From an uncultured Eubacteriales bacterium (lineage in GTDB: Bacteria > Acidobacteriota > Aminicenantia > Aminicenantales > Saccharicenantaceae), in contig CAZKFD010000011.1 of NCBI GenBank assembly GCA_964551995.1, forward strand, positions 173,036 through 237,035: DNA of 64,000 bases. Direction: 5' to 3'. Below the pieces are notes generated by a model. It was not told the DNA's origin. It worked only from the letters and a program-made list of their open reading frames with translations, and did not search any database. Below are positions 12,995 to 52,276 of the stretch, piece after piece; positions within the stretch are counted from its first letter, which is position 1; every line of letters begins with the position of its first letter. Both the position numbers and the translations under genes were made by a program.

Positions 12995-14364
12995 GCTTTG
13001 AACTGCTCCGGACGGAATTCCAGCAGTCTCCGGGCCTTGACGGCGTCGTTGGTGTTGAGGACGGCGACGCAGGATTCGAAGGCGAGATCGGCCGGGCAGC
13101 TCAACGGCGTGCCCAGCCGGACGGCGTCGAAGAAGTTCTCGAGGTGCGGCTGGTGCGCGGGCTTGGCCAACTCGACCGGCAGATTCCAACGCCCAGCCTC
13201 CTGGGTCATCCGGACGTCGACGAAGATGTTCTTTGAAGTGCTCTTCTGGATCGGGGCGGACTCGGATTCGAGGAGCCCGGCCTTGGCCAAAGAGTCCCAT
13301 TCCGGCGCCGTGGGCTCTCGCATCGCCCAGTTCCCCTTGGACGGGATTTCGGACAGGACGATCGATCCGTTGTCTCCCATGAACGTCTCGTAGAAACCGC
13401 CATGCTGGGTGGTCGTCTGGACCTGATAGAAGGCGCGGGAGATGCCCCCCGGCCTCTCAAATTCGTAGACGGCCATGACGTTGTCATACCACTGCCAATC
13501 TTTGTAATAGTCCATGCCGCCGCTGGCGACGACCGACCGGGGGTTCGCGCCAAAGACCCAGCTGAAGAGGTCGATTTGGTGCGAGCCGAGGTCGACCATG
13601 GGGCCGCCGCCGTATTTTTTGAACAGGCGCCAGTTCCGGAATTCGGTCATCGAGCCGTAGCCGTACTTGTTGAGCGTGGCCGCGTCGATCGTGTATTTCT
13701 CGGGCCATCCGAGGAGCTCGCTCTTGGCCCGGTTCCACTGGGAGTAGGCGGCGGTGACCAGGCCGAGAAGCCTGTGCTCCCGGATAAGGCGGTCGATGGC
13801 GTGGATGTAGCGGGGATTGGAGCGGCGCTGATGGCCGATCTGAAGGAGCTTGCCGGTTTCCCGGGCCGTGAGGACCATCGAGCGGGCCTTCTCCAGAGAA
13901 TTCGCCATCTCCTTTTCGCAGTAGACGTGGAGCCTGGCCCTGAGGCAGGCGTTGGCGTGATCGGCGTGCATCCAGTCGGGCGTCGCGATGACGACGGCCT
14001 GGAGGTCCTTCTCCTTGGCCAGGAGGTCGCGGAAGTCTTCGTAGACCCGGACGTCCTGCCCGTATTTTTTGAGGTAGTTGTGGGTGTAGGTCTGGCTGTA
14101 GCTCCAGATGTCGCAGATCGCGAGGATCCGGATGGCCGGAATGCGGAGGATGGATTCGATGAGGACCCGGCCCTGGGCGCCGCAGCCGATAACGGCAATG
14201 CGGAGCTCCTTGGGATTCTTCTCCGCGGCCGCCTTCACCCGGGGCGTTTGGGAGAGCGCTTTTCCGGCGAGCGCCAGGCTGAGGCCCGCCGCGGCCGAGG
14301 TCTTGAGGAAGTCCCGGCGCGACAGGCCGTCCTTCGCGTCCGGGCGTTTCGTCTTCGTGTGCAT
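12991..14364 (-). CDS. TAT-exported Gfo/Idh/MocA family oxidoreductase
   Basis: The twin-arginine signal is SRRDFLKTSAAAGLSLALAG. The Rossmann motif is IAVIGCGAQG. An AGGAG RBS precedes the start. Confidence 0.85.
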   Translation of the reverse strand: MHTKTKRPDAKDGLSRRDFLKTSAAAGLSLALAGKALSQTPRVKAAAEKNPKELRIAVIGCGAQGRVLIESILRIPAIRILAICDIWSYSQTYTHNYLKKYGQDVRVYEDFRDLLAKEKDLQAVVIATPDWMHADHANACLRARLHVYCEKEMANSLEKARSMVLTARETGKLLQIGHQRRSNPRYIHAIDRLIREHRLLGLVTAAYSQWNRAKSELLGWPEKYTIDAATLNKYGYGSMTEFRNWRLFKKYGGGPMVDLGSHQIDLFSWVFGANPRSVVASGGMDYYKDWQWYDNVMAVYEFERPGGISRAFYQVQTTTQHGGFYETFMGDNGSIVLSEIPSKGNWAMREPTAPEWDSLAKAGLLESESAPIQKSTSKNIFVDVRMTQEAGRWNLPVELAKPAHQPHLENFFDAVRLGTPLSCPADLAFESCVAVLNTNDAVKARRLLEFRPEQFKA

Positions 14365-34085: not shown

Positions 34086-35705
34086 TCACCAGAAGATGAT
34101 GTTCAGGAGGACGGCGACGAGGATCGCCACGGCCCCCCAGACCGCGGGCCGGGCGAACCACCTCGCCGCCGCCTTCACGCGGGGGGTCAGGCCGAACACG
34201 AGGCCCCTGAGATCCTCGGGATTCCGCCTTGCCGTGAAGAGGCTGACCCCGATCGTCATCACGAAGTCCGCGAGCCAGGCCCACCAGGCCTGGTAGAAGT
34301 TCGCGGCCATGTCGCTTGCGTAATGCAGGACGCCGGCCTTGAAGGCGACGTAGTGGCCGGCGGCCGTCAGGATGCCGAAGAGAAGCCCGAAGAACCCGCC
34401 CCACGCCGTGGCCCCGGCCCAGAACATCCCGAGGAGGAAGGTGGCGAAGAGCGGCGCGTTGAAGAAGGAGAAGACGAGCTGCATGTAATCCATGAGGTTG
34501 GGAAACGACCGAACGATATAGGCCGTGCCGACGCTGATAAAGACGCCGAAGACGGTCGCGTACTTGCCCATGTTCAGATAGTGGGAATCGGGCTTGCCTC
34601 TCCGGATGTACGTCCCGTAGATGTCGTAGGTCCAGATCGTGTTGAAGGCCGTGACGTTGCCGGCCATCCCGGACATGAAGCTCGCCAGGAGGGCGGTGAT
34701 GGCCAGCCCGAGGACGCCGTTGGGCAGGTAGTGCTTCATCAGCAGGATGAGCGCGGAGTTGTATTCCGCCGTGCGGCCGACGGCCTGGCTGAACTCCGGC
34801 AGGACGATGAGAGCCACGAGGCCCGGGATGACGACGATGATCGGAACGAGCATCTTGGGAAACGAGGCGATGATCGGCGTCATGCGGGCCGAGTTGATGT
34901 TCTTCGAGGCCAGCGCCCTCTGGACGACCAGGAAGTCCGTCGTCCAGTAGCCGAACGACAGGACGAATCCCAGGCCGAAGACGACGCCGAACCAGTCGAC
35001 GCCGAGCGGGTTGTTGCTCGTGCCGAGGAACTTGATCGAATGGAGCAGCGGCTCCTTGAGCCTGGCCGCGAATCCCGCGACGCCCCCGACCTCCCGGAGG
35101 CCGAGGAAAACGATCGGCAGGAGGCCGAGCCAAATGAGGAAGAACTGGATGACCTCGTTGTAGATCGACGAGGACAGGCCTCCCCAGAAGACGTAGATGA
35201 GGACCACGGCGGCGGCGAAGAGGATGCTCCCGGTGAGCGACCAGCCGAGCATGAGCTTGAAGAGGAGGGCCATGGCGTAGAGGCTGATGCCGCTCATGAG
35301 GACCGTCATGACGGCGAAGGAGATCGCGTTCAGGCCGCGCGTGGCCTCGTTGTAGCGGAGCTTGAGGTATTCGGGGACTGTCCTCACCCGGCTCCCGTAG
35401 TAGAAGGGCATCATGAAGATCCCCAGGAAGACCATGGCCGGGATGGCCCCGACCCAGTAGAAATGGACCGTGGTGATGCCGTACTTGGCCGAGTTGGCCA
35501 CCATCCCGATGACCTCCAGGGCGCCCAGGTTGGCCGACAGGAAGGCGAGGCCCGTGATCCAGCCCGGGAGCGACCGGCCCGAAAGGAAGAAGTCCTCCCC
35601 GGTCTTCATGTACTTCTTGAGGGAGTAGCCAACGAGGATCATGACCAGGATGTAACCGGCGATGATGGCGTAATCGACGGCGTTGAGGACGATGATCGGA
35701 TGCAT
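34086..35705 (-). CDS. sodium:solute symporter family (SSS) transporter
   Basis: The 539 aa product has about 13 TM segments and typical SSF motifs. It is the correct frame inside a 1122 aa antisense artefact ORF. Confidence 0.85.
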
Positions 35706-35788
35706 CTCCTTCTCCTTTCCTCGAGGGAGCCGTCCGGAGACCGGCGCGGAGCGGGCGGCGACCGTCCCCGCCCCGTCCGCGGCAGAAC

Positions 35789-35817
35789 ATATAACACAGG
35801 AGAATTCGGGCTGTCAA
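35789..35817 (-). promoter_or_regulatory. candidate sigma70 promoter (TTGACA-17-TTATAT) for the SSS symporter
   Basis: On the minus strand, TTGACA is at 35812-35817 and TTATAT at 35789-35794, in the divergent intergenic region. Confidence 0.35.
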
Positions 35818-35937
35818 AAGGGCGCGTTGCCGACTCGCGGACGTTCGAGGAGGGGCCTTCGGCGCGGGGCCCGGGCCGGCGCCGTGCCGGTGAGAAAATC
35901 CTCGCCGCGGGACGTTCCCTTTCTTGAGGAGCCCCAA

Positions 35938-36975
35938 ATGGCTGGAGAGACGCCCGCGAAGACCCCCCCGGGGGCAGGGAACGACGACGGGTATCCCGCG
36001 GCCGCCGTCCGCCCCTTTTTGGGGTCGGCCCCGTCGGTCGAAAAAATCCGGGTCATGATTGAAAAGGTGCGGGATACCGACGCCCCGGTGTTCATCCTCG
36101 GCGAGAGCGGGACGGGAAAGGAGCTCGCCGCCCGGACGATCCACGAGACGGGCGCGCGCCGGGCCGGTCCGTTCGTCGCCGTCAACTGCGGGGCCATCCC
36201 CGAGAGCCTGCTCGAAAGCGAGCTCTTCGGCCACGCCCGGGGCGCGTTCACCGGGGCCTTCCGGGACAAGCCCGGCCTCGTCGAAGAAGCCGCCGGAGGG
36301 ACGTTCTTTCTCGACGAGGTCGGCGACCTGCCGTTCGGCCTCCAGGCCAAGCTCCTTCGGCTTCTCGAGGAGCGGACGATCCGCAGGGTCGGGGAGACGC
36401 GGGTCCGGACCGTCGATGTCCGCTTCATCAGCGCCACGAACAAGGACATCGATCATGAGGTCGCCCGCGGGAACTTCCGTGAGGACCTCTACTACCGGCT
36501 CAAGATCATCCCGATCGAGCTCCCGGCGCTCCGGGAGAGGCGGGAGGACATCGTCGTGCTCCTCAACTACTTCGTGGGCGAGTACGCGCGGCGCATGCGG
36601 CGACCGCGGCCCCATTTCTCGCCGCGGGCGCTCGAGCTCCTGACCGGCTATTCCTGGCCCGGCAACGTTCGCGAGCTCCAGAACGAGGTCCAGCGCTGCC
36701 TCGTCATCGCCGGGCTCAGCCCGATGATCCGGGAGGATTTCCTGTCCCCGAAAATCAACCCGGGAGGGGAGGAGTATACGCCGTCTTCCCATCTTCTGGC
36801 CGGGGCCCGGGCCGAGTTCGAAAAAAGGTTCCTCCGGGAGGCCCTGGCCCGTTGCAACTTCCACCGCAGCCGGACGGCCGCGGAGATCGGCCTTACGCGC
36901 CAGGGGCTGTTCAAGCTGCTCAAAAAGCACAATATCCGGCCGGGGAGCCCGGAGCCGGCAAAAGAAACGTCGTAG
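35938..36975 (+). CDS. sigma-54-dependent transcriptional activator (AAA+ EBP + Fis-type HTH) lacking a sensory/receiver domain
   Basis: The product has the GESGTGKE Walker A, ESELFGH and GAFTGA motifs and a C-terminal HTH. A GAGGAG RBS lies 6 nt before the ATG at 35938. Only about 35 aa precede the AAA+ domain. Confidence 0.8.
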
Positions 36976-42009: not shown

Positions 42010-43872
42010 TCAGGAGACGATAATGATGGCCTCGCCGGCGACGGCGTCGAACCGGCAGACTTCAAAGCACGAACGGCACTTGATGCACTTGCTTTGGTCA
42101 AGATTGTGAGGCTGGGACCTCGGCCCCGTAATGGCTCCCGTAGGGCACACCTTGACGCACATCCGGCAGCCCGTGCACCGCTCGGGGATGATGCGGAAGG
42201 TGATCAACTCGCGGCAAACGGCCGCCGGGCAGCGTTTGTCCACGACGTGGGCGATGAATTCGGAGCGGAAATACCGCAATGCGGTCAAGACCGGGAGGGG
42301 AGCCGTCTGTCCCAGGCCGCAGAGCGAGCTATTCCTCACGATATTCGCGAGCTTCTCCAGCCGGGTCAAGTCCTCTTCGCTGGCTTTCCCGGAAGCGATC
42401 TTGTCGAGGAGGCCGACCATGTGCCGCGTGCCGACCCGGCAAGCGACGCACTTGCCGCACGATTCGCCCTGGACGAACGACAGGAAGACGCGCGACGTGT
42501 CAACCAGGCAGGTGTCTTCGTCCATAACCAGAATCCCGCTCGAGCCCATGATTGTGCCCGCGGCGCGCAGGGAGTCGAAGTCGAGCGGCGTTTCGATCTT
42601 GCTGCCCGGCAGGAACCCTCCCGACGGCCCGCCCGTTTGAACGGCCTTGAGCGCTTTCTTTCCCGTAATGCCGCCGCCGATCTCATAGATCAGGCTCGAA
42701 AGCGCAGTCCCCATGGGCACTTCCACGATCCCGGAGTTGGCGATCTTCCCCGTCAAAGCGAAGACGGCTGTTCCCCGGCTCGTTTCCACGCCTGTGGAAG
42801 AGAATCCGTCTGCCCCGTCGGCGATGATCGAGGGGACACAGGCCAGAGTCTTGACGTTGTCGATGATGGTCGGTCTCCCCCAAAGCCCCTTTTCTGCGGG
42901 AAACGGTGGCCGGGGCTGGGGCATGCTCCTCGAGCCCTCGAGGGAGCCCAGGAGGGCGGTCTCCTCGCCGGAGACGAACGTCCCGCCGCCTTCGAAAATT
43001 TCGGCGTCGAAATCGAAGCTCGAATCGAGAAGACCTTTCCCGAGATATTTCTTTTCGAGGGCCTGCTCGAGGGCAATGCGGGTCCGCCGCGCGGCCAAGG
43101 AGTATTCTGCGCGGCAGTAAATATATCCCTGGCCAGCGCCCACAGCGTAGCCGAGGAGAGCGAGCCCTTCGATGACCGTGTGGGGGTCCGCTTCGAGCAG
43201 GCTGCGGTCCATGAAGGCGCCGGGGGAGCTCTCGTTGGCGTTGCAGATGACGTACTTCTCGTCCCCCGGCTGCCGGCGACAGACGTCCCACTTGTACCAA
43301 GTGGGGAATCCAGCCCCGCCTCTCCCGCGGAGGCCGGACCGCTTGACCTCATTGACGACTTCCTCCGGCGTCATCGATGAGACGGCCTTCCGCAGAGCCC
43401 GGTAGCCGCCCCGGGCCTCATAGTCCGCGATCCTCTCCGGATTGATCAGGCCGCAGTTGCGGAGGATGATCCTCTTCTGCTTCTTGTAAAAGACGATGTC
43501 CCCGTAGCGCGGGACGATCTCTTTCGTGACCGGGTGGCGATAGAACAGTCGCTCAACGGGCGCTCCTCCGAGGAGATGGGACTCGGCGATATCCTTGGCG
43601 TCCCCGGGCTTAACCCGGCAATAGAAGATCCCCTCAGGCTCGACGACGACGATCGGGCCGATCTGGCAGAATCCGTGACACCCGGTGAAACTGACTTCGA
43701 CCTTGTCCCGGAGGCCCAGCCTTCCGACCTCATCCTCCAGGGCGGCCCTGATCTCGGCTGAACTGGAGGACAGGCAGGCGGTACTCTCACAGACGAGGAC
43801 TTTCGTTTTATCCACGGCGGGCTTCTCCCTCGAAGCGCCTCCTTTCCCGGACTTCGGCCGGGCGGCGCTCAT
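42010..43872 (-). CDS. NuoF/HydB-like NADH-binding flavoprotein subunit (51 kDa) with N-terminal thioredoxin-like 2Fe-2S and C-terminal 2x[4Fe-4S] domains
   Basis: The internal start MSAARPKSG.. follows GGAGGAG and overlaps the NuoE-like stop (ATGA). GRGGAGFPT is the FMN site. The C-terminus has CxxCxxCxxxCP ferredoxin motifs. Confidence 0.85.
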   Translation of the reverse strand: MSAARPKSGKGGASREKPAVDKTKVLVCESTACLSSSSAEIRAALEDEVGRLGLRDKVEVSFTGCHGFCQIGPIVVVEPEGIFYCRVKPGDAKDIAESHLLGGAPVERLFYRHPVTKEIVPRYGDIVFYKKQKRIILRNCGLINPERIADYEARGGYRALRKAVSSMTPEEVVNEVKRSGLRGRGGAGFPTWYKWDVCRRQPGDEKYVICNANESSPGAFMDRSLLEADPHTVIEGLALLGYAVGAGQGYIYCRAEYSLAARRTRIALEQALEKKYLGKGLLDSSFDFDAEIFEGGGTFVSGEETALLGSLEGSRSMPQPRPPFPAEKGLWGRPTIIDNVKTLACVPSIIADGADGFSSTGVETSRGTAVFALTGKIANSGIVEVPMGTALSSLIYEIGGGITGKKALKAVQTGGPSGGFLPGSKIETPLDFDSLRAAGTIMGSSGILVMDEDTCLVDTSRVFLSFVQGESCGKCVACRVGTRHMVGLLDKIASGKASEEDLTRLEKLANIVRNSSLCGLGQTAPLPVLTALRYFRSEFIAHVVDKRCPAAVCRELITFRIIPERCTGCRMCVKVCPTGAITGPRSQPHNLDQSKCIKCRSCFEVCRFDAVAGEAIIIVS

Positions 43873-44339
43873 TGTTTCTCCTCCGAAGGATCGAGAGATT
43901 CGACGAGTTGCATAAACGTCACCCGATTCATCCGCCCATGAATCTCGTTGTTTACGACGACGACGGGGGACATGGCACAGCAGCCCAGGCAACCGATCCC
44001 CTCCAGGCTGAGCATTCCGTTCGGCGAAGTCTGGCCGTGGAGAAGGTTCCTTTCGAGCTTCATGGCTTCCATGAAGTTCTGAGCTCCGCCGACATGACAG
44101 GCGTTGCCTAGGCAGACCTGGATGTGGTATTTCCCGGGAGGTGCAAAACGGAACTGCGGGTAGAACGTGGCTACGCCGTAGATCTCATTCTCGGACATCC
44201 GAAGCTTCCGCGACAGAGATTCGATGGATTCTTGGGAAAGATACCTTTCGGCGTCATGGATCTTCTTGAGAAGAGGAAGCAGGCTCCTCCTCCTTTCGCG
44301 GATGTCCGTCCGGGTGAAATGGGAGGCTGCGCCCGACAT
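43869..44339 (-). CDS. NuoE/HydC-like thioredoxin-like [2Fe-2S] ferredoxin subunit
   Basis: The 156 aa product has Cys ligands in CLGNACHVGGA...CLGCCAMSPV. Confidence 0.85.
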   Translation of the reverse strand: MSGAASHFTRTDIRERRRSLLPLLKKIHDAERYLSQESIESLSRKLRMSENEIYGVATFYPQFRFAPPGKYHIQVCLGNACHVGGAQNFMEAMKLERNLLHGQTSPNGMLSLEGIGCLGCCAMSPVVVVNNEIHGRMNRVTFMQLVESLDPSEEKQ

Positions 44340-44340
44340 G

Positions 44341-45687
44341 TCATCCTCCTCTCGAGGACGATTTTTTCGATTCCGGGGGGACGGGCTCGGGGCGCCCCTT
44401 TCGATAATAGATGTCCCTCAGGCTTTCGATTCGGCCGGGAGAGAGAAACACGCAATCCGCGATCTTGGCTCTCGCATGGGCCACATCGCCCGCATGGCTC
44501 CGGCAGGTCGGCGCCCCGCAGAGCCCGCAGTTCAGCCCCGCGAGGGACCTCAGCAGCTCGGCTGTCCGATTTTTCCTGGCGACCCTCTCGCGCAGGTCAA
44601 CTTCTTTTCCCTCGATGTCTCGTGGTCTTAAGGGGGCCCTCAACGAGAAATCCTCGGAGGCGCGTCGCCGCCCGACCTCCCTGATGAACTGGCGAGACGG
44701 GCGAGGCAGGCTCGAAATCAACTGGAGATTCCGGCTGCGGGCGACGTAGAGGTTCTCGACCGTGAGATTGCCGCCGATGCACCCTCCCTGGCAGGCGTGG
44801 CACTCCAGGAAATCGATGTTGCGGATTTTTCCCTTCTCGATGTCGCCGAAGACCTTGATGATGTCGGAGAGGCCCTGGAGGGGAAGGTAATGCTCTTTGG
44901 AGAGGTTCGGGAATTCGCCTTCCGGTGCGCCCCAGTGGAACCATTCGCTGGAGCCCGTCGCATTCGCCGCGCATTCGTCTTTCTCGGGGTTCCGGCGCAG
45001 GATGGCCAGGAGATCGTTGTAGATCTGGGAAATGCCGACGGCTCCGTCCAGGTAGCTTCCGGCGCCTTCCGCCGGCTCAAGGATCGAGATCGTCTTCGCC
45101 TGGCACGGCGTGATATAGATAGCGGCAATGTCCTCCGGCTTCAGGCCCAGCTTCTGCGAATACCGGCGCTTCACCTCGCGTCCCGCGATCTCCCGCGGCG
45201 ATTCAATGCGGATCAGCTGGTCGACGAGGCTAGGATAAGCGACCTGGACGAGGCGCACGACGACCGGGCACGAGTTGGAGATCAGGGGAAACGGGCCGGG
45301 CCACTTTCTCACGTCATCGCGGATGGCCAAATTGACGAGCTCGAGATCCACCGCATATTCCCAGACGGCATCGAAGCCGAGACCCAAGAGGGCCTGGTTC
45401 ACGCGCCCCGGCCTCTCCATCAACGAGAATTGGGTGTAGAGAGCCGGGGAGGCCACGGCGACTTTGAACTTAAACCTGTCCAACTCCGCGAAGCTGATCG
45501 TAGTCGCCGAGATGGCGCCCGACGGACAGACCCCGAGGCAGGAACCGCAATCGATGCAGAGCTCAGAAATGACTGTCGCCTTGCCCTTTTTCACCCTGAT
45601 GGCCTGCGTCGGGCAGGTACGCATGCAGGCCATCCGGCCCTCGCATTTCTCGGCGTCGATCCGGAAACCGTGTTTCAGCTCATTCAT
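44341..45687 (-). CDS. putative sensory [FeFe]-hydrogenase-like protein (HydS-like; 2x[4Fe-4S] ferredoxin + H-cluster-like domain + C-terminal Cx2Cx4Cx16C)
   Basis: It starts with CEGRMACMRTCP and CIDCGSCLGVCP ferredoxin motifs. H-cluster-like motifs follow: L1 SNSCP (TSCCP with the first Cys replaced by Ser), L2 ITPCQAK and L3 ECHACQGGCIGG. The C-terminus NCGLCGAPTCRSHAGDVAHARAKIADC is an exact Cx2Cx4Cx16C motif. At 448 aa it is too short and too divergent to be a catalytic HydA. Confidence 0.75.
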   Translation of the reverse strand: MNELKHGFRIDAEKCEGRMACMRTCPTQAIRVKKGKATVISELCIDCGSCLGVCPSGAISATTISFAELDRFKFKVAVASPALYTQFSLMERPGRVNQALLGLGFDAVWEYAVDLELVNLAIRDDVRKWPGPFPLISNSCPVVVRLVQVAYPSLVDQLIRIESPREIAGREVKRRYSQKLGLKPEDIAAIYITPCQAKTISILEPAEGAGSYLDGAVGISQIYNDLLAILRRNPEKDECAANATGSSEWFHWGAPEGEFPNLSKEHYLPLQGLSDIIKVFGDIEKGKIRNIDFLECHACQGGCIGGNLTVENLYVARSRNLQLISSLPRPSRQFIREVGRRRASEDFSLRAPLRPRDIEGKEVDLRERVARKNRTAELLRSLAGLNCGLCGAPTCRSHAGDVAHARAKIADCVFLSPGRIESLRDIYYRKGRPEPVPPESKKSSSRGG

Positions 45688-46120
45688 GGGCGTTCAGCCT
45701 GATCCTGGCGATGACAGATGTGCCTTTCCCGACCTCCGTTTCGATCCGCAGCTCGTCGGAATTTTTTTTCATGTTCGGGAGTCCCATCCCGAAACCGAAT
45801 CCGAGTTCCCTCATCTCGTCCGTGGCCGTGGTATACCCTTCTTGGAAGGCCAGCTCGAGGTCCGGGATTCCCGGGCCTTCGTCCCGGACGATCAAGTCCA
45901 CGGCATCCTCCGTGAGAATGAACGTCAGCGTCCCTTTCCAGGCGTACATGACCACATTCATTTCCGCTTCGAAGGCCACGATCACGGCTCGGCGGATATC
46001 CGGCGCGCTGATGCCAAGGTCCAGGAGGACGGACTTGATCTCGCCGGAGATCTCCCCGCCCCGGTCGAAATTCCCTCCCTGGATCTCGTAGGATTCCCGC
46101 ATCAGCTCGGCGGCCATCAA
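45680..46120 (-). CDS. GHKL-type ATPase (anti-sigma factor/Ser-Thr kinase-like, HATPase_c)
   Basis: The 146 aa product has N-box EAEMNVVMYA, G1 DEGPGI and G2 GFGFGMGL. It overlaps the HydS-like start and the DRTGG gene. Confidence 0.75.
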   Translation of the reverse strand: MMAAELMRESYEIQGGNFDRGGEISGEIKSVLLDLGISAPDIRRAVIVAFEAEMNVVMYAWKGTLTFILTEDAVDLIVRDEGPGIPDLELAFQEGYTTATDEMRELGFGFGMGLPNMKKNSDELRIETEVGKGTSVIARIRLNAHE

Positions 46121-46461
46121 GAAACACCTTTGAGCCCCTTGCTCGCGAGAAGGGCGCAGATGTCGAACATAATCATCCGGGTTACGAGGACCGGGATCTT
46201 TTTGTTCCTGGCGTACTCGATCACCCTGTTATCGGGCCTCTTCCCGCGGCAGTAGAGGACGGCGCAGCATCCGGCGAAATCGGCCGTCCGGATGGATTGA
46301 ATGTTGGTCAGCCCGGTGACCATCAGTTCCTTGGATTTGGCGAAGGCCAGGATTTCGCTCATGCCGTCCGACGCCACGACCTGCTGGACATCGATGGAGA
46401 GGCTATCATCCCCAGCGAGGACTTCACATTGGAGAAGGTCTCTGATCTCGCGCAGCTTCAT
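46117..46461 (-). CDS. DRTGG domain protein
   Basis: The 114 aa product reads MKLREIRDLLQCEVLAGDD..ILAFAKSKELMVTGLTN..KIPVLVT, which resembles a DRTGG/CBS-associated domain. Confidence 0.65.
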   Translation of the reverse strand: MKLREIRDLLQCEVLAGDDSLSIDVQQVVASDGMSEILAFAKSKELMVTGLTNIQSIRTADFAGCCAVLYCRGKRPDNRVIEYARNKKIPVLVTRMIMFDICALLASKGLKGVS

Positions 46462-46462
46462 G

Positions 46463-47878
46463 TCACGTCTGTCCGGTCAGGTATTGATGGATGGAGGCCG
46501 CGGCGATCCTCCCGTCCCCCATGGCGCTGATCACCGTGGCTGCGCCCCTGACAACGTCGCCCCCCGCCCAGACGCGGGCCTTGGACGTCCGGGCTGTCGC
46601 GGGGTCGGTCACGATCCCGCCCTTGCGGTTGACCTCCAGGCCCGGTGTCGTCATGGGGAGGAGAGGGTTGGGGCTGTTGCCGATAGCGATGACGACGGCG
46701 TCCACCGGCATGCGGAAATTCGAGCCTTCGATGGGGATCGGCTTTCTCCTCCCCGAATCGTCCGGCTCCCCCAGAGTCATCTCCAGGCATTCCATCTCTT
46801 TGAGCCATCCGGTCTCGTCGCCGATCAAGCGGACCGGCAGGGTGAGGAGGTTGAAAATAACGCCCTCCTCCTCCGCGTTCTCGGCCTCTTCTGCCCGTGC
46901 CGGGAGCTCCGTCCGGCTCCGGCGGTAGACGAGATGAACCTCGTCGGCGCCGAGGCGGATGGCCGTCCGGGCGGAGTCCATGGCCACGTTCCCGCCGCCG
47001 ACGACAGCCACGCGGGACCGCCGTTTGACCGGCGTGCCGTATTCGGGGAACCGATAGCCTTTCATCAGGTTCACGCGGGTGAGGTACTCGTTGGCGGAGT
47101 AGACCCCGTTGAGGTTCTCGCCCGGAATGTCCATGAACCAGGGAAGACCCGCGCCGGCCCCGGCGAAGAGGGCGTCGTATTCCTCGAGGAGCCGGTCGAC
47201 CGTTTTGGTCGTGCCCACGATGAAATCCATCCTGATCCTGGCCCCCAGTCTCTGAACGTAATCCACTTCTCGCTGAACGATCGCCTTAGGAAGTCTGAAT
47301 TCAGGTATTCCGTAGACCAAGACCCCACCGCACTCGTGAAGGGCCTCGAAGATGGTCACATCGTGGCCCAGAATGAGGAGATCGTTGGCTACGGTGACGC
47401 CGGCCGGGCCCGCCCCGACGATGGCCACTTTTTTTCCCGTCTTAGAGGCCTTCTCCGGCATCTCGAGTTTTCCCGAGGCCGCCTCCCAATCGGCCAAGAA
47501 ACGCTCCAACCGGCCGATGGCCAAAGGATCCCCCTTCTTGCCGACGACGCACATCTTCTCGCACTGCTCTTCCTGGGGGCAGACGCGACCGCAGATGGCC
47601 GGCAACGCGTTGGTCTGCTTGATCTTGCGGATGCCTGCGGCGAATTCACGCCCGACGATGTGCCGGATGAAGCCCGGAATATCGATCCCCACGGGACACC
47701 CTTGCTGGCACAAAGGGTTCTTGCAGTCCAGGCACCTCGAGGCTTCCTCGACGGCCGTTTCGATGGGATATCCCAGAGCGACCTCGTCGAAGTTCTTGAT
47801 CCTTTCCAGGTGGTCCTGCTTCGGCATGGGCCGGCGCTTCACGTCCAATATCCTCTTGGCCGGCTTTTCTTCCGCCAT
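46463..47878 (-). CDS. NfnB/GltD/SudA-like NAD(P)H-binding FAD/FeS oxidoreductase (glutamate synthase small-subunit-like)
   Basis: The internal start MAEEKPAKRIL.. at 47878 lies 14 nt after the upstream stop. CLDCKNPLCQQGCPV and CGRVCPQEEQCEKMC are two [4Fe-4S] sites. VAIVGAGPAG is the FAD site and VAVVGGGNVAMD the NAD(P) site. Confidence 0.85.
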   Translation of the reverse strand: MAEEKPAKRILDVKRRPMPKQDHLERIKNFDEVALGYPIETAVEEASRCLDCKNPLCQQGCPVGIDIPGFIRHIVGREFAAGIRKIKQTNALPAICGRVCPQEEQCEKMCVVGKKGDPLAIGRLERFLADWEAASGKLEMPEKASKTGKKVAIVGAGPAGVTVANDLLILGHDVTIFEALHECGGVLVYGIPEFRLPKAIVQREVDYVQRLGARIRMDFIVGTTKTVDRLLEEYDALFAGAGAGLPWFMDIPGENLNGVYSANEYLTRVNLMKGYRFPEYGTPVKRRSRVAVVGGGNVAMDSARTAIRLGADEVHLVYRRSRTELPARAEEAENAEEEGVIFNLLTLPVRLIGDETGWLKEMECLEMTLGEPDDSGRRKPIPIEGSNFRMPVDAVVIAIGNSPNPLLPMTTPGLEVNRKGGIVTDPATARTSKARVWAGGDVVRGAATVISAMGDGRIAAASIHQYLTGQT

Positions 47879-47891
47879 GTCCGGCACCTTC

Positions 47892-48731
47892 TCAAAAATG
47901 AGTCGCGGCGCTGCTCCGGCGAAGCGGGTCGATCTCTTCGAGATTGTAGCTCTTGCGCCGCGCCAGAAATTCCGGCCAGTCGATCTCATGCCCGTCGAAA
48001 TCGGGACCGTCGACGCAGGCGAACTTCATTTTCCCGCTGACCGAAAGCCGGCAGACGCCGCACATCCCCGTCCCGTCGATCATGATGGGGTTCATACTGA
48101 CGGTCGTCTTCCAGCCCAACGGTTTGGTCAATTCCGAAGTCCGCATCAGGAGAAACGTGCATCCGTTGACGATGACCAGATTGGGCGTGATCCCAGCCTC
48201 CTCCATCATAGCGGGCATCCTGTCGATATGCCCCTTCCGGCCCTTGGTCCCATCCCGGGTGACGACGAAGACGCCGTCCGAGGTTTCGGCCAGCTTCTCT
48301 TCCCAATAGAGCAAATAGGCGGCGCGGGCTTCGAGGAAGGCGTAGACCCTGTTTCTGGCTTTCTTCAGGGCCCGGGCGATCGGATAGATTGAGCCGATGC
48401 CGTAGCATCCGCCCACGCACAGGACCGTGCCGAAGTTGTCGATGAGGGTCGGCTTGCCCAATGGGCCAGCATAGGTCGGAATGAACTCTCCCGGCTTCAG
48501 CCGGGCCAGCCTGGCGGTCGAGCCGCCGACCTGCATGAAGATGGAGGTCACTGTGCCGGCCTGCCGGTCCCAGTCTGCCACGGAGAGGGGGATCCGCTCG
48601 CCGAGCTCGTCCGGCCGGACGATGACGAATTGACCCGGCCGTATGGACTCCGCCACCTCCGGGGCACGAACAGTGAGCTCGTGCAGATTGGGAACAATCA
48701 TCCGGCGCTCGATCACGTCGTACATGCCCAT
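47892..48731 (-). CDS. NfnA/PyrK/SudB-like FAD + [2Fe-2S] ferredoxin-NAD(P) reductase subunit
   Basis: The 279 aa product has the C-terminal GMCGVCRL...FACVDGP 2Fe-2S motif of the PyrK/NfnA family. Confidence 0.8.
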   Translation of the reverse strand: MGMYDVIERRMIVPNLHELTVRAPEVAESIRPGQFVIVRPDELGERIPLSVADWDRQAGTVTSIFMQVGGSTARLARLKPGEFIPTYAGPLGKPTLIDNFGTVLCVGGCYGIGSIYPIARALKKARNRVYAFLEARAAYLLYWEEKLAETSDGVFVVTRDGTKGRKGHIDRMPAMMEEAGITPNLVIVNGCTFLLMRTSELTKPLGWKTTVSMNPIMIDGTGMCGVCRLSVSGKMKFACVDGPDFDGHEIDWPEFLARRKSYNLEEIDPLRRSSAATHF

Positions 48732-48756
48732 CCTCCCTCTTCCGTCCTGGACCGCC

Positions 48757-51264
48757 TCACGCCGTTATCCTAGTGACGGCGACCCGAACCGGATTCGCCT
48801 CGAGCCTGTAGAGCGGCAGAAGGTCGCGCCGCCCTCCCAGCCCGCCGAAAACGGCCGGTCGGCTGATGTAAATAACGCCAGCCGGACATCCCGGGTCCTC
48901 CACGGCGATGCCCGGGGCGCTGGCCTTGCTGTCGCGGGCGGAGATATGAATCCGGCTGCCGCTTTTCAAACCCAGCCCGGCCATGTCCTCCGGGTTTATG
49001 CGGAATCCCTCCTCGAGCGCGAGCTCCTCCAACCCCCCGACCTTTGAGGAAAGGTCGATCCCCCGGTGGCGGTAGCCGCCCGGCTGGAAAACCAGCAGGA
49101 ACGTGCCCTCGGAAGCCCGGCCGTTTTTCGCTTTTCCCGGCTCCCATGCGGACGGCGCCCTCATGCGCCTCTGCCTCCGGCTCACGCCGGCCGGGAAATC
49201 GGGGATGTCCTTCCTGATTTCTTTAAAGACGTCTCGCGGGCTTCTGTAACTCATAATATGGCAATCCATGGCATCGGCGAGGTCGGCGAAGATGCGCCAG
49301 TCCGGCCGCATGAAGCCGGTCAGCGCGCCTTCCGGGGGGGCCTCGACCTGGACGATCTCCTGGACCCGGCCCTCCATATTGACCAGCGTCCCTCCGGCTT
49401 CGGCGAACGAGGAGGCGGGGAGGAAGACATCGAACGCGAACGGCGGAAGATAAATATCCTGGACGATCAGAAAATCGCAGGCCGGCCTCTCGAGGAAGGG
49501 GATGTCGCCGGCCAGGTAGAGCACCTTTGGGCGCTTCCGGCCGCTTGCCAAGTCCTCGAGGCGGAAATCTCGCTCCCGATGCCCTCCCGCCGGAGCCTCT
49601 TCCGGAAGAAGGCCCAATTCGAGAACGCCCCGGGAGTTAGCCCCGAAATAGAGAGGGATGAAGTTTGACTCCGGTCGCGTCGCCAGCCGCCTCAATCCCT
49701 CGGCGAGGTCGCTTGTTTCCGCGTAGTGGAAGACCTGCGGACCCAGGATCACCGTCAGGCGCTCGCTAGCGGCCATCACGGCCAGGGCCTTTTCAAGAGA
49801 CGGGGCGTCGATGCCCGCTGCCCCGGCCAGCGCGGGCGGGGCTGGCGCTTTCCCCGCCAGGTACTTGGCGATGCCTTTGAGGACCGTTCCTTCGGTCCCG
49901 GGAGCCGGCCGAAGCCAATCGTCCGTATAACGGGCCAGGTTGCTGTCCCTCGGGTCGATGGTCACTAACCTGGCACCCGCGTCGATGGCCTGGCGGACCT
50001 TCGTTCCGACTACCGAGAAATCAAACCGGCTGTCGAGATCGACGGCCAGGATGGCGTCCGAGCCGGTGATGTCTTTGATAGAGATGGGCAGGGAGAAGAG
50101 GAAGGACCAGAGGCCCAGCCCTCCGCCGAGCTCGATTCGGGCCGTGGAGTCGATGCGGGGGGCGCCGAGGCAGTCCCGCGCGAATCTCCGGGCGGCGTAC
50201 AGAGCCTCATTGGTAAGATCCGGCGATACGATCAGGGCCGAGTCCCCGGGCTCGACGGCCCCGAGTGCCGCTGCGGCCTTTCCCAGCGCTTCCTGCCAGG
50301 TCACCTCTCGGGCGAAATCACCCTTCTTCATCAGCGGCTTCTTGGCGCGGTCGAAATGATGGGTCGTTTCGGGAAGGCAGAAGCGTCCCCTGACACACAG
50401 CTGCCCATCGTTGACTTCCGGATCGAGGCTGGCCTTGACGCCCGTCAGCCGGCCGTTCTTGTGGTTGAGCTCGACTTGGCAGCCGATGGCACAGATGGGG
50501 CACGTGGAGACCTGGAATCCGTCGGGCTTCCCTTCCCACTTGGAGACCTTGTCGGCGAGAGCGCCCGTCGGACAGACATCTACGCAGGCGCCGCAGAATT
50601 CGCAGCCCGCCTCGCGGTGGCTGCGGCCGAAGGCCGTGCCGATCTTTGTCAGAGAGCCCCGGCGGGTGAAGGCCAGCACCGAGCTCCCGCGGACCTCCGC
50701 GCACATCCGGACGCAGCGTCCGCAGAGAATGCAGAGGTTGTAATCCCGGTCATAGAAAGGATCATCGTGTTCGGGCTCGAAACCATGATAGAGGATGGGG
50801 TAATCGATCTCCGGGAGGCCGATCCTGTCGATGACGTCCTGGAGCTCGCATTGACCGTCGTTCGGGCAGAAACGGCAGCCCGTCGTCACGCCGCTCTTTC
50901 GGATCGTCCCCTGAAACTCTCGGCAGGCGGCGCTCTCTTCGCAGATGAGACAGCTCGAGGGATGCTCGCTGAGGATGAGCTTGAGCATCTCCCGTCGGAA
51001 CTCTTTGAGGGCCTCCGAGTCGGTCCGGACTCTCATCCCCTCCGCGGCGGCGGTGCTGCAGGACAAGGGATATCCCCGCATCCCTTTGACTTCGACCATG
51101 CACAGCCGGCATCCGCCGAAGGGAGAGAGGTCCTTATGGGAGCATAGGGAAGGGATATAAATCCCGTTCAGCTCGGCCGCTCGATGGATGGACACGCCTT
51201 CGGGAAAGGAAACCGTGCGGCCGTCCATCTCGAGGGCCAGCGTGCGCGACTCCTTGTGCGCCAT
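48757..51264 (-). CDS. NuoG-like FeS subunit with molybdopterin-oxidoreductase-type domain (no evident formate-dehydrogenase active-site Cys/Sec)
   Basis: CSHKDLSPFGGCRLC is a 2Fe-2S site. HPSSCLICEESAAC is a His-ligated 4Fe-4S site. CILCGRCVRMC..CEFCGACVDVCP are 2x4Fe-4S sites. TCPICAIGCQ is an MGD-type 4Fe-4S site. No RVCH/U-H motif follows. Confidence 0.8.
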   Translation of the reverse strand: MAHKESRTLALEMDGRTVSFPEGVSIHRAAELNGIYIPSLCSHKDLSPFGGCRLCMVEVKGMRGYPLSCSTAAAEGMRVRTDSEALKEFRREMLKLILSEHPSSCLICEESAACREFQGTIRKSGVTTGCRFCPNDGQCELQDVIDRIGLPEIDYPILYHGFEPEHDDPFYDRDYNLCILCGRCVRMCAEVRGSSVLAFTRRGSLTKIGTAFGRSHREAGCEFCGACVDVCPTGALADKVSKWEGKPDGFQVSTCPICAIGCQVELNHKNGRLTGVKASLDPEVNDGQLCVRGRFCLPETTHHFDRAKKPLMKKGDFAREVTWQEALGKAAAALGAVEPGDSALIVSPDLTNEALYAARRFARDCLGAPRIDSTARIELGGGLGLWSFLFSLPISIKDITGSDAILAVDLDSRFDFSVVGTKVRQAIDAGARLVTIDPRDSNLARYTDDWLRPAPGTEGTVLKGIAKYLAGKAPAPPALAGAAGIDAPSLEKALAVMAASERLTVILGPQVFHYAETSDLAEGLRRLATRPESNFIPLYFGANSRGVLELGLLPEEAPAGGHRERDFRLEDLASGRKRPKVLYLAGDIPFLERPACDFLIVQDIYLPPFAFDVFLPASSFAEAGGTLVNMEGRVQEIVQVEAPPEGALTGFMRPDWRIFADLADAMDCHIMSYRSPRDVFKEIRKDIPDFPAGVSRRQRRMRAPSAWEPGKAKNGRASEGTFLLVFQPGGYRHRGIDLSSKVGGLEELALEEGFRINPEDMAGLGLKSGSRIHISARDSKASAPGIAVEDPGCPAGVIYISRPAVFGGLGGRRDLLPLYRLEANPVRVAVTRITA

Positions 51265-51278
51265 GGCTCATTCCGAGA

Positions 51279-51605
51279 TCACCTGATGCCGAGCTCATAG
51301 AGCTTCTTGGCCAGGGTCCAGGTGTCGTCCTCGGATCCGAACAGGGCGATCTTGGCCCGGACGGCCAGGGCGACGACGTCCTCGGGGGGGGTTTTGCCGC
51401 GGGAGTAAAGGACGGCGGCGACGTCGACGAGGTTGGCGGCCGCGATCAGGTTCTTATGGGTCTGGAGGGTGATCAGCAGGTTGCCCCCCTTGATTCCGAT
51501 GATATCGCTGACCATGTCGGAGATATAGACCCCCTGGATCTCCTTGTCCGCATAGGGATTGAACGACCTGAGTCCGATTTTTGAGGCAAGTTCGGAAATC
51601 TTCAT
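51279..51605 (-). CDS. DRTGG domain protein (second copy)
   Basis: The 108 aa product reads MKISELASKIGLRSFNPYADKEIQGVYISDMVSDIIG..LLITLQTH.. Confidence 0.65.
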   Translation of the reverse strand: MKISELASKIGLRSFNPYADKEIQGVYISDMVSDIIGIKGGNLLITLQTHKNLIAAANLVDVAAVLYSRGKTPPEDVVALAVRAKIALFGSEDDTWTLAKKLYELGIR

Positions 51606-51622
51606 TTGGCCTTTTCCTTATT

Positions 51623-52162
51623 TCAATAGAGTTCGGTCAAGCCAACGTCGGCGAGGACGATCCCCTGGCAAAAATCCACGGAACGGCGCAACGTGCAGGG
51701 AACAACGATGATCTTCTTATTCGGGTCCACGAGGTCCGCGTTGAAGTATTCGTTCAGGGCCCAGATGCTTTCCTCCGAGACGCACGTTCCCCGCTCGTGC
51801 GAGGAGTCGGCGCAGAGAGCGACATAAACCCAGGTCTTCCACTCCGGATCCGCGGCGCCGCTCTTGAAGACCCCGCAGTCCGGATCGCATCGCCAGCAAA
51901 GCATCAAAGCCATGAGCTCCTTGAGGGGGACTTCCCTCGAGCACTTCTTGCACTTGAGGTCGAACTTGACAGCCTGGGAGCTCCCCAGGTAACTCCAGAT
52001 ATGGTCCCCTTGCTGATAGTGATCGACCGGCGGAACCGGCTCTTCGGAAAAGAATGAGATTCGGTGACGGCACTGGAAGCAGCCCTCGGTGACCAGATAG
52101 CCACTCCGGACGTTGACCATCTCCCATCTGTGTTGGCACAAGCCTCTTACCGTCGTGTTCAA
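51623..52162 (-). CDS. Cys-rich hypothetical protein (multiple CxxC/CxxxxC pairs; zinc-ribbon-like), first gene of the redox operon
   Basis: The 179 aa product has 12 Cys, including CFQC, CKKC and CWRCDPDC. The start is uncertain: the ORF-track start is a TTG at 52162, with an in-frame ATG at 52120. GC content is lower than in its neighbours. Confidence 0.4.
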   Translation of the reverse strand: MNTTVRGLCQHRWEMVNVRSGYLVTEGCFQCRHRISFFSEEPVPPVDHYQQGDHIWSYLGSSQAVKFDLKCKKCSREVPLKELMALMLCWRCDPDCGVFKSGAADPEWKTWVYVALCADSSHERGTCVSEESIWALNEYFNADLVDPNKKIIVVPCTLRRSVDFCQGIVLADVGLTELY

Positions 52163-52276
52163 GGCCCTGGACCGCCAAGAATTCTGCGCTCGATTCTTAT
52201 AGAACTATACAGACGCCCCGCTTTCTTGTCAAGAAAACGGATTACTCTCCGGGAGTCATTCAAGGCTGCGGCCGGG

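Follow-up and report, generated by a model that had tools for sequence, protein, structure and literature searches.

A candidate NfnAB-linked Bfu transhydrogenase with a putative H2- or redox-sensing module, encoded by a ten-gene operon of an uncultured Aminicenantia bacterium

A 64,000-nucleotide (nt) stretch of DNA from an uncultured bacterium of the Aminicenantia, referred to here as the window (contig CAZKFD010000011.1, positions 173,036 to 237,035; assembly GCA_964551995.1), carries a ten-gene operon whose products we read as a candidate electron-bifurcating transhydrogenase with an attached sensor module. All ten open reading frames (ORFs) lie on the minus strand between positions 42010 and 52162, where an earlier note on this DNA had placed them, with neighboring genes overlapping by as much as 8 nt or lying as much as 31 nt apart. 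The public gene calls for the same contig (k141_3465494 in ENA, with JGI and Logan copies) give essentially identical ten genes, differing only in that G1 begins at Met15 (165 residues), G4 is 2 residues shorter, and G7 is 1 residue shorter. G5 and G10 start later than the longest listed ORFs, and the outer coordinates given earlier are still valid. Pfam and NCBIfam profile searches of the ten proteins provided the domain assignments listed below, in which FAD and FMN stand for flavin adenine dinucleotide and flavin mononucleotide.

52204-52232, minus strand: candidate sigma-70-like promoter directly upstream of G1 (TTGACA-17-TATAGT, 11/12 consensus matches)
51623-52162, minus strand: G1, Cys-rich protein, 179 residues from a TTG start (public start Met15 at 52120); sensor module
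51279-51605, minus strand: G2, small DRTGG-like protein, 108 residues (DRTGG 23.9 bits); sensor module
48757-51264, minus strand: G3, BfuA, NuoG/Fdh-like Fe-S scaffold, 835 residues (Pfam/NCBIfam domains)
47892-48731, minus strand: G4, NfnA/NfnS-like subunit with FAD and [2Fe-2S], "GGCYG" subfamily (DHODB_Fe-S_bind; PRK06222 315 bits)
46463-47878, minus strand: G5, NfnB/NfnL, NADP(H)-binding FAD subunit with two [4Fe-4S] (Fer4_20, Pyr_redox_2; TIGR01316 572 bits)
46117-46461, minus strand: G6, DRTGG protein, 114 residues (PF07085 30.4 bits); sensor module
45680-46120, minus strand: G7, stand-alone GHKL ATPase, SpoIIAB/RsbW-like (HATPase_c 41.8 bits)
44341-45687, minus strand: G8, group D (M2e)-type HydS-like [FeFe]-hydrogenase, putative H2 sensor (Fe_hyd_lg_C 90 bits, PF04060, two 4Fe-4S motifs)
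43869-44339, minus strand: G9, BfuC, NuoE/HydC-like [2Fe-2S] subunit (PF01257, 2Fe-2S_thioredx, 136.8 bits)
42010-43872, minus strand: G10, BfuB, NuoF/HydB-like FMN and NAD(H) subunit (Complex1_51K, NADH_4Fe-4S, N-terminal 2Fe-2S, two C-terminal 4Fe-4S motifs)

The subunit previously described as NuoF-like proves to be a full-length BfuB of the bifurcating type. Over its whole length, G10 can be aligned to the B subunits of structurally characterized bifurcating enzymes, scoring 774 bits against NiFe-HydB of Acetomicrobium mobile (7t2r_B), 726 bits against 7q4v_B, 698 bits against 9bov_B, and 668 bits against 8oh5_B, whereas non-bifurcating NuoF proteins reach about 310 to 370 bits over the central domains only. 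The ligands of the B2 cluster are kept by every Bfu enzyme and absent from non-bifurcating homologs (PMC9304861). G10 retains these ligands, three Cys and one His, in the pattern DTC...H...CPAAVC (DTC...AHVVDKRCPAAVC), which fits Suppl. Fig. 9 of PMC9304861; the B1 [4Fe-4S] site, the N-terminal [2Fe-2S] site, and two C-terminal [4Fe-4S] sites are all present. G10 therefore carries the full set of features given for BfuB by Schut et al. (2022), namely the FMN and NADH domains, B1, B2, and the N- and C-terminal clusters. G9, which overlaps the start of G10 by 4 nt, has the thioredoxin-like [2Fe-2S] domain that characterizes BfuC in the Bfu family.

Two loops of G10, at residues ~207-224 and 295-308, are unusual. 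The window BfuB and seven close relatives share the NADH loop CNANES[SA]PGAFMDRS (CNANESSPG in the window protein itself) and the FMN loop GGGTFVSGEETALL, while the near-universal Bfu motifs are CNADEGDPGAFM(N/D)RS and GAGAFVCGEETAL, and other cluster-associated BfuB proteins keep this canonical form. A changed nucleotide preference is possible. We also considered whether the window BfuCB pair, which occupies the 3' position, was captured from a HydABC operon. This is countered by a neighbor-joining tree in which all cluster-associated BfuB proteins fall into a single clade, itself divided into two subclades, that is distinct from Firmicutes HydB and from the BfuB of Chloroflexi NiFe-Bfu operons.

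A scan with G3, restricted to one genome per species, yielded 68 related loci (labeled L0xx), and all ten proteins were compared with these loci by tblastn. G3 itself comprises Fer2_4, NADH-G_4Fe-4S_3 (a His-type 4Fe-4S motif), Fer4_Nqo3, Molybdop_Fe4S4, and Molybdopterin domains in Pfam. The earlier note had described a large subunit with neither an H-cluster nor the active-site Cys or selenocysteine (Sec) of formate dehydrogenases, and both observations hold. No match to Fe_hyd_lg_C occurs in G3 (HydA at L063 scores 347 bits), leaving it without the H-cluster domain that resides inside BfuA/HydA in HydABC enzymes, and the FdsA motif ARVCHS aligns to ARI-EL in G3, a gap followed by Glu-Leu. 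The same position is occupied by E, S, Y, G, A, L, or R in 43 G3 orthologs, no in-frame TGA is present in G3, and the C-terminal Mo-domain is the least conserved part of the protein (0.48-0.61 versus 0.68-0.80 for the Fe-S part). The combination expected of a formate dehydrogenase, Sec/Cys-His, Arg, and a full bis-molybdopterin guanine dinucleotide domain, is not found in G3. The Fdh-like domains of StnC and of NfnA from Caldicellulosiruptor saccharolyticus (Csac) are likewise pterin-free (PMC11829005, PMC10482914). Given that the formate dehydrogenase site is missing from G3 and variable among its orthologs, and that conservation is lowest in the Mo-domain, we regard G3 as an electron wire of the kind seen in Csac NfnA and StnC. 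Its best match among Bfu structures, at 217 bits, is the BfuA of A. mobile NiFe-HydABCSL, which has no catalytic site. G3 also contains a clade-specific insert of ~25 residues in the His-ligated 4Fe-4S motif, with the extra Cys residues C114, C130, and C133. The result is a duplicated CxxCx5C within residues 101-142 (H101-C105-C108-C114 ... C130-C133-C139) that is invariant in 43 orthologs from several phyla, absent from NiFe-Bfu BfuA and HydA, and present in the BfuA::NfnA fusion proteins described below; it may constitute an extra metal or Fe-S site.

Alignments to characterized Nfn subunits bear out the earlier proposal that the NADP-binding module is a separate NfnB polypeptide with an NfnA-like partner. 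G5 matches NfnB of Thermotoga maritima (Tm) over its full length at 565 bits, compared with 261-340 bits for the GltD-like domain of Stn/NfnABC, and conserves the cluster Cys of both [4Fe-4S] sites, the FAD motifs, EFRLPK (R201 of Pyrococcus furiosus [Pf], near FAD N5), and the VYRRS NADPH motif. G4 scores 252 bits against Pf NfnS and 209 bits against Tm NfnA and keeps the [2Fe-2S] motif of one Asp and three Cys. By alignment to 4ylf and 5jca and by conservation among orthologs, the pair has the FAD sites, NADPH motif, clusters, and Arg of a cofactor-complete NfnAB. The NAD loop of G4 sets it apart: its core GCYG is found in 44/44 cluster-associated orthologs, and the longer form GGCYG(I/L)G in 41 of the 44, versus GGGVG(V/I)A in Pf and Tm NfnA.

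The gene set recurs in dozens of metagenome-assembled genomes (MAGs) from several phyla, indicating that the ten-gene grouping is not due to chance. All of the loci stem from uncultured organisms. Four arrangements are seen. In arrangement A, found in the window and ~10 Aminicenantes, the genes run from G1 to G10 in numerical order. Arrangement B (G1 G2 G9 G10 G3 G4 G5 G6 G7 G8) occurs in most Aminicenantes, Phycisphaerae/Planctomycetota, WOR-3, and Anaerolineae, and arrangement C, in the Actinomycetota loci L038, L041, and L042, consists of divergent operons with G8-G7-G6-G2-G1 facing G9-G10-G3-G4-G5. Arrangement D, represented by Desulfocapsaceae (L053/L054) and Actinomycetota (L037/L043), is G9-G10-G3-G4-G5 alone. 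Across these four arrangements and at least six phylum-level labels, G4 and G5 directly follow G3 in 43/43 loci with enough sequence. NuoE/F genes are present in 27 of the 28 loci with room for every gene; all five of G1, G2, G6, G7, and G8 are found in 25 of these 28, and none of the five in the other 3. In three distant metagenomic loci (L073, L074, and L077; G3 identity of 30-35%), the gene order is again NuoE-NuoF-BfuA-NfnA-NfnB, stop codons overlap the start codons that follow, and the flanking genes are unrelated. The order BfuA-NfnA-NfnB is constant, while the position of G8 varies across loci, and G8 is missing from L053, L054, L037, L074, and L077, all of which keep the core. Compared over more than 55 related loci, the ten genes thus fall into two sets: BfuC-BfuB-BfuA-NfnA-NfnB is the catalytic unit, and G1, G2, G6, G7, and G8 are a detachable accessory (sensor) module.

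Some of these loci carry additional features. In two Phycisphaerae MAGs (L031:970-4149 and L046), BfuB is fused at its C terminus to a second GltD/NfnB-like domain (1059 residues; Complex1_51K, NADH_4Fe-4S, Fer4_20, and Pyr_redox_2), and separate NfnA and NfnB genes are still located downstream of BfuA. The five-gene core of a Desulfocapsaceae MAG (L053:15206-21075), which lacks the sensor module, is followed after ~300 nt on the same strand by genes of an Ech/Mbh-like group 4 [NiFe]-hydrogenase-type module: NuoH-like, antiporter-like, a fused NuoC/D-NiFe large subunit, and a NuoB-like small subunit. In two Actinomycetota MAGs, a membrane protein of 470-496 residues with a Ferric_reduct domain (PF01794) adjoins the cluster; its gene is divergent from the core in one (L037:5775-7187) and lies downstream of G8 within the sensor operon in the other (L038:2431-3921). 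This protein could be a membrane electron partner.

Independent evidence on the place of NfnA comes from a HMMER scan of 1.84 billion representative sequences with G4, in which loops and fusions were counted over the best 150 representatives. The nearest relatives of G4 include single polypeptides with an N-terminal BfuA-like part and a C-terminal NfnA-like part, as identified by Pfam and BLAST; there are 11 such BfuA::NfnA fusions among the 150, with lengths of 636, ~840, and ~1020-1080 residues. A GGC[YFH]G loop is present in 28 representatives, 11 of them fused to a BfuA-like protein and none to NfnB, and a GGGxG loop in 83, of which 20 are fused to NfnB and none to BfuA. NfnB-NfnA fusions number 21 in all, 20 with the GGGxG loop and 1 with another loop, and there are no crossovers with the BfuA fusions. 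Fusion of two proteins in some lineages is a classic sign that they interact where they are encoded separately. The BfuA::NfnA fusions accordingly raise a specific prediction, that NfnA would sit at the BfuA interface.

The accessory module centers on G8, which the earlier note had called HydS-like. G8 matches the H-domain model Fe_hyd_lg_C and, across its orthologs, keeps the four H-cluster Cys (xCP, PC, C..GC), has the proton-relay Cys299 exchanged for Ser, carries Cx2Cx4Cx16C at the C terminus, and lacks a PAS domain. These are all of the sequence features of group D (M2e) as described in PMC8163306, where the group is defined with TamHydS as its representative and a sensor role is proposed. 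TamHydS catalyzes H+/H2 interconversion, and M2e activity is low (PMC8163306). The PDB holds no solved group C or D HydS structure for comparison with G8, and its best matches there are catalytic hydrogenases at ≤68 bits. G7 resembles Ser kinases of the SpoIIAB/RsbW type (48 bits against TIGR01925 [spoIIAB], below the cutoff). The DRTGG score of G2 is also below its cutoff (25.2 bits), and the protein is 35% identical to G6 (E = 8e-10) and always adjoins G1 across the compared loci. G1 has no Pfam or NCBIfam match, and no structural neighbor was found for it; its ~300 homologs share 11 invariant Cys, those listed are unnamed or labeled "hypothetical protein," and the family is confined to this cluster type.

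The HydS/HATPase/DRTGG combination had been expected beside true bifurcating hydrogenases, and we indeed find it upstream of genuine HydCBA in four Clostridia loci, three of them of the Oscillospiraceae type. In these loci, homologs of G6-G7-G8 (36-47% identity) precede NuoE-NuoF-HydA, with Fe_hyd_lg_C at 347 bits in HydA, and the G6-G7-G8 order is conserved overall, Firmicutes HydABC operons included. NiFe-Bfu operons of Anaerolineales/Chloroflexota (L059:4027-13909, L058, and L062) encode NuoE, NuoF, a BfuA with a Mo-domain remnant, and a NiFe large subunit and are preceded by DRTGG, CBS-CBS-HATPase, DRTGG, and PHP-domain genes but no HydS, which suggests a kinase/phosphatase-type accessory set common to Bfu operons. 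The NiFe-Bfu operon of A. mobile contains a "HisK" gene whose product does not belong to the enzyme (PMC8880783). On the basis of the Clostridia, Anaerolineales, and A. mobile operons, the DRTGG/GHKL genes look like a general accessory of Bfu operons, independent of which third substrate is used, and HydS looks like an optional input to it. None of the ten operon genes encodes a DNA-binding protein, which makes posttranslational control probable.

From the observed gene content, cofactor motifs, conservation, modularity, and fusion proteins, we propose, with a probability of roughly 0.55, that the operon encodes a five-subunit, Type-3-like NfnAB-Bfu transhydrogenase acting on NADH, ferredoxin, and NADP+, together with an H2/redox sensor module. 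The "Stn-like" transhydrogenase suggested in the earlier note is strengthened by the invariant BfuA-NfnA-NfnB order, the BfuA::NfnA fusions, and the subfamily-specific NfnA signature. Its further points, that the same operon holds no canonical HydA or FdhF and that the architecture is not that of a described complex, also stand: the operon ends within the window, and we found no characterized complex of equal composition. As in Type 3 Bfu enzymes, G3 has no catalytic site and is followed by extra subunits, G4 and G5, in all 43 informative loci. The Type 1 Nfn-Bfu pattern is not seen, as G3 has neither Pyr_redox_2 nor Fer4_20, G5 is a separate gene, and an NfnA-like G4 is present.

We infer complex formation and an electron path of the following kind. 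BfuC (G9) and BfuB (G10) would form the FMN/Fe-S bifurcating core that binds NAD(H) and ferredoxin, and BfuA (G3), itself lacking a catalytic site, would serve as an Fe-S wire of the NuoG/Fdh-like type. The NfnA-like G4 is predicted to dock on BfuA and to connect NfnB (G5), whose FAD would bind NADP(H). NADP(H) would react at this FAD, and electrons would pass through the [2Fe-2S]/FAD of the NfnA-like subunit into the Fe-S chain of BfuA, possibly at the extra Cys site. The BfuBC core would divide them between NAD+ (at FMN) and ferredoxin or, running backward, merge the two streams. Overall, the reaction would most likely be that of Nfn and Stn: NADH + reduced ferredoxin + 2 NADP+ <-> NAD+ + oxidized ferredoxin + 2 NADPH. 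By the nomenclature of Schut et al. (2022), the third-substrate module would be the whole NfnAB pair, in place of the GltD-like domain fused into BfuA in Stn/NfnABC. The NfnA-like subunit has probably lost the use of NAD(H) and would serve as a relay through its FAD and [2Fe-2S] cluster. In the Chloroflexota NiFe-Bfu operon at L059, the NiFe large-subunit gene lies ~0.6 kb downstream of BfuA, about where NfnAB is found here. By analogy with HydABC and NiFe-Bfu operons, the sensor module (G8, G7, G2, G6, and the Cys-rich metalloprotein G1) would report H2 or the redox state and modulate the Bfu enzyme, probably posttranslationally. The system is probably an unfused relative of Stn/NfnABC that retains NfnA and is probably gated by H2 or redox state.

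Several points weigh against this proposal. The BfuA::NfnA fusions are known from protein-library entries that come without genomic context. No fused BfuA-NfnA ORF was found in metagenome DNA among 11 loci from a scan seeded with the fusion alignment, a scan that mostly returned ordinary NfnA loci, its patterns having come from the NfnA half; BfuA and NfnA are separate ORFs wherever the ORF structure was checked (L073, L074, and L086). G4 and G5 are so close to stand-alone NfnAB, with all ligands intact, that they could work alone, and for a plain transhydrogenase the energetics make it redundant to attach an entire bifurcating NfnB to an entire bifurcating BfuBC. That group D hydrogenases act as sensors is, in the literature as well, a hypothesis (PMC8163306).

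In an alternative that we consider unlikely, two independent enzymes are cotranscribed: a stand-alone NfnAB and a HydABC-like hydrogenase whose H-cluster is on the separate G8, docking on G3. The model for such docking is HytA in the Hyt complex of Clostridium autoethanogenum. The scores of 209-565 bits between G4/G5 and characterized NfnAB, with every ligand present, are compatible with this arrangement, as are the contiguity of G8, G9, and G10 in the window, with 1-nt and overlapping junctions, and the four H-cluster Cys kept in G8, given that TamHydS interconverts H+ and H2 (PMC8163306). Moreover, nfn genes are known beside genes of multimeric hydrogenases without forming one enzyme (PMC6405883). 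However, BfuA::NfnA fusions exist, and the loop signature splits them strictly from the canonical type. The BfuA-NfnA-NfnB order is invariant, yet G8 changes position, lies in a divergent operon with regulatory genes in Actinomycetota, and is absent from the five core loci named above. The Firmicutes homolog of G8 coexists with a real HydA, and the low activity of M2e enzymes (PMC8163306) likewise argues against the alternative. We thus favor a single NfnAB-Bfu enzyme over two separate ones.

A second alternative is tandem double bifurcation. The NfnB FAD would feed through NfnA and BfuA into the BfuBC flavobicluster, giving two ferredoxin sites and a machine that drives NADP+ reduction very hard or reaches unusually low potentials, similar to the Bam-Bfu proposal. 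This turns on whether the NfnB FAD bifurcates and whether its [4Fe-4S] clusters form a second ferredoxin site. Both bifurcation signatures are conserved (EFRLPK and both [4Fe-4S] in G5; B1-B5 and FMN in G10), the fusions put NfnA rather than the NfnB [4Fe-4S] at the BfuA interface and so leave the ferredoxin branch of NfnB free, and two bifurcating modules in series have been proposed for Bam-Bfu (PMC9304861). Nevertheless, the idea is pure inference, simple energetics forbid ferredoxin reduction at both sites with NADPH as the sole donor, and the conserved clusters may be vestigial side branches, as are A4/A5 in Csac NfnA (PMC11829005). We consider it quite unlikely and take an equally skeptical view of its extended form, in which two active centers in series (NfnB FAD and BfuBC FMN/Fe-S, linked by NfnA/BfuA) are switched by an H2-sensing [FeFe]-hydrogenase module. 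If true, such series centers would be the first natural hybrid of FAD-type and Bfu-type bifurcation and a living intermediate from NfnAB to Stn/NfnABC. Far less probable than either alternative is the identity implied by the public annotation of G3, an NAD(P)-linked formate dehydrogenase or other molybdoenzyme. G3 does match PF00384 over its full length (88 bits), its best PDB sequence matches are FdsA-type formate dehydrogenases (residues 5-469), and the source annotations agree. We reject this identity, however, since the active-site pair is replaced at a position that varies among orthologs and the dinucleotide-binding domain is weak (Molydop_binding, 17 bits against a cutoff of 26.8); the C-terminal domain is also where the protein is conserved least. 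The lack of an in-frame TGA, the lack of Mo-cofactor or FdhD-type genes near the operon among the window ORFs scanned, and the pterin-free homologous domains of Csac NfnA and StnC (PMC11829005, PMC10482914) point the same way.

The surroundings of the operon are unrelated to it, with an ApbA-like reductase upstream and a convergent POT transporter downstream. No HydA, no FdhF, and none of the HydEFG maturases that an H-cluster requires was found among ~30 other window ORFs scanned (10 flanking and 20 farther away, including most of the long ones). The Rex operator TGTGAA-N6-TTCACA has no match with ≤2 mismatches anywhere in the window, and an Rfam scan of the window gave no matches. A sigma-54 activator (35683-36975, plus strand; AAA+ and HTH_8, with an N-terminal ~110 residues matching no family) lies ~5 kb past the 3' end of the operon, and a link between the two is not evident. 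Farther away, an 892-residue ORF (10622-13300, minus strand) with a weak, multiheme-type Cytochrome_C7 match is unrelated to the operon and is followed by two ORFs (9927-10625 and 8831-9730) that match no family. Another public assembly that includes the operon (L070:1-1760) has transposase/integrase genes (rve, HTH_Tnp_1) directly upstream of G3 in place of G1, G2, and the upstream genes, which could be an insertion or an assembly variant cutting off the 5' end of the operon.

Each component belongs to a known family; what is new is how they are combined, together with the NfnA subfamily and the sensor setting. In the literature, FAD-based Nfn and FMN/Fe-S-based Stn/Bfu have been treated as separate solutions, and this operon sets a complete NfnAB beside a complete BfuABC, with the BfuA::NfnA fusions as independent evidence for physical contact. 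The operon thus presents either a Bfu type of a new kind or an intermediate in evolution toward Stn, as well as a compact system in which to study how a pair of bifurcating modules is joined. The group D HydS/HATPase/DRTGG module occurs here without any catalytic hydrogenase in the operon or the scanned window ORFs, which argues that the module acts on the Bfu core or on the balance of NAD(P)H and ferredoxin and not on hydrogenase per se, and the function of a "sensory" [FeFe]-hydrogenase becomes testable in a new context. In MAGs of Aminicenantes, Phycisphaerae, Actinomycetota, and others, this BfuA carries the public label "formate dehydrogenase alpha subunit" or "molybdopterin-dependent oxidoreductase," and the G3 sequence contradicts the formate dehydrogenase alpha label. 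Metabolic reconstructions that read this BfuA as formate metabolism, or G8 as an H2-evolving hydrogenase, are probably wrong.

In a literature search of limited reach, we found no description of a BfuABC + NfnAB enzyme or of a group D HydS module on a non-hydrogenase. Neither a BfuABC + NfnAB enzyme nor the sensor association appears in the Bfu catalog with its Suppl. Table 1 (PMC9304861), the Stn/NfnABC structure papers, the Nfn review, or the Hydrogenedentota Bfu paper, and in the catalog Nfn-Bfu figures solely as Type 1 ABC, where NADP(H) binds to a domain of BfuA (PMC9304861). On Nfn or hydrogenases in Aminicenantes, nothing specific was found. A non-catalytic Fe-S protein resembling NuoG/Fdh is also partnered by a GltD-like protein that binds NADPH in SfrAB of Geobacter sulfurreducens and in NsoABC of Thermococcus litoralis; we know of no NfnA-like subunit or HydS module in either.

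Among known systems, TamHydS of Thermoanaerobacter mathranii (group D/M2e), compared here by its published description, resembles G8 in its two N-terminal [4Fe-4S] motifs, its four-Cys H-domain with loss of Cys299, its Cx2Cx4Cx16C motif, the absence of PAS, and an adjoining histidine-kinase-like ATPase. It differs in lying upstream of a trimeric bifurcating [FeFe]-hydrogenase, of which this operon and the scanned window ORFs have none, and in having Ser and Leu where G8 has Thr and His, at the Met353 and Met497 positions. NfnAB/NfnSL of T. maritima (4ylf) and P. furiosus (5jca) provides full-length homologs of G4 and G5 with all cofactor ligands. In contrast to Nfn, the pair is encoded here between BfuA and other Bfu-associated genes at every locus, and G4 has the GGCYG rather than the GGGVG(V/I)A loop, in a subfamily that is fused to BfuA and never to NfnB among the 150 representatives. 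Nfn itself has no HydBC homolog, and most species have either Stn or Nfn (PMC10482914).

StnABC/NfnABC (Type 1; Sporomusa ovata 8oh5, C. saccharolyticus 9bov, and Thermococcus sibiricus 9n5u) shares the BfuBC core, a pterin-free NuoG/FdhF-like scaffold, an NfnB/GltD-like FAD-NADP(H) module, and the predicted net reaction. G10 scores 668-698 bits against its B subunits, residues 133-440 of G3 align to the NuoG-like part of 9bov_A and 8oh5_C, and G5 aligns to the GltD-like domain. Here, however, the NADP(H) module is a polypeptide of its own and resembles true NfnB (565 bits) much more strongly than it does the fused domain (261-340 bits), and there is an NfnA-like subunit, of which Stn has no homolog (PMC10482914). 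The fusions further suggest entry into BfuA via NfnA and not via an NfnB-type [4Fe-4S] pair, and the three-Cys insert in G3 and the attached HydS/HATPase/DRTGG module are extra. In NiFe-HydABCSL of A. mobile (Type 3; 7t2r/7t30), the subunits score highest against G10 over its full length (774 bits) and, among Bfu-type proteins, against G3 (217 bits); BfuA there likewise lacks a catalytic site, the substrate module being extra subunits. G3 differs from that BfuA in retaining a longer Fdh-like C-terminal domain. The extra subunits are the small and large subunits of a NiFe-hydrogenase there and NfnA and NfnB here, so that the third substrate is predicted to be NADP(H) instead of H2.

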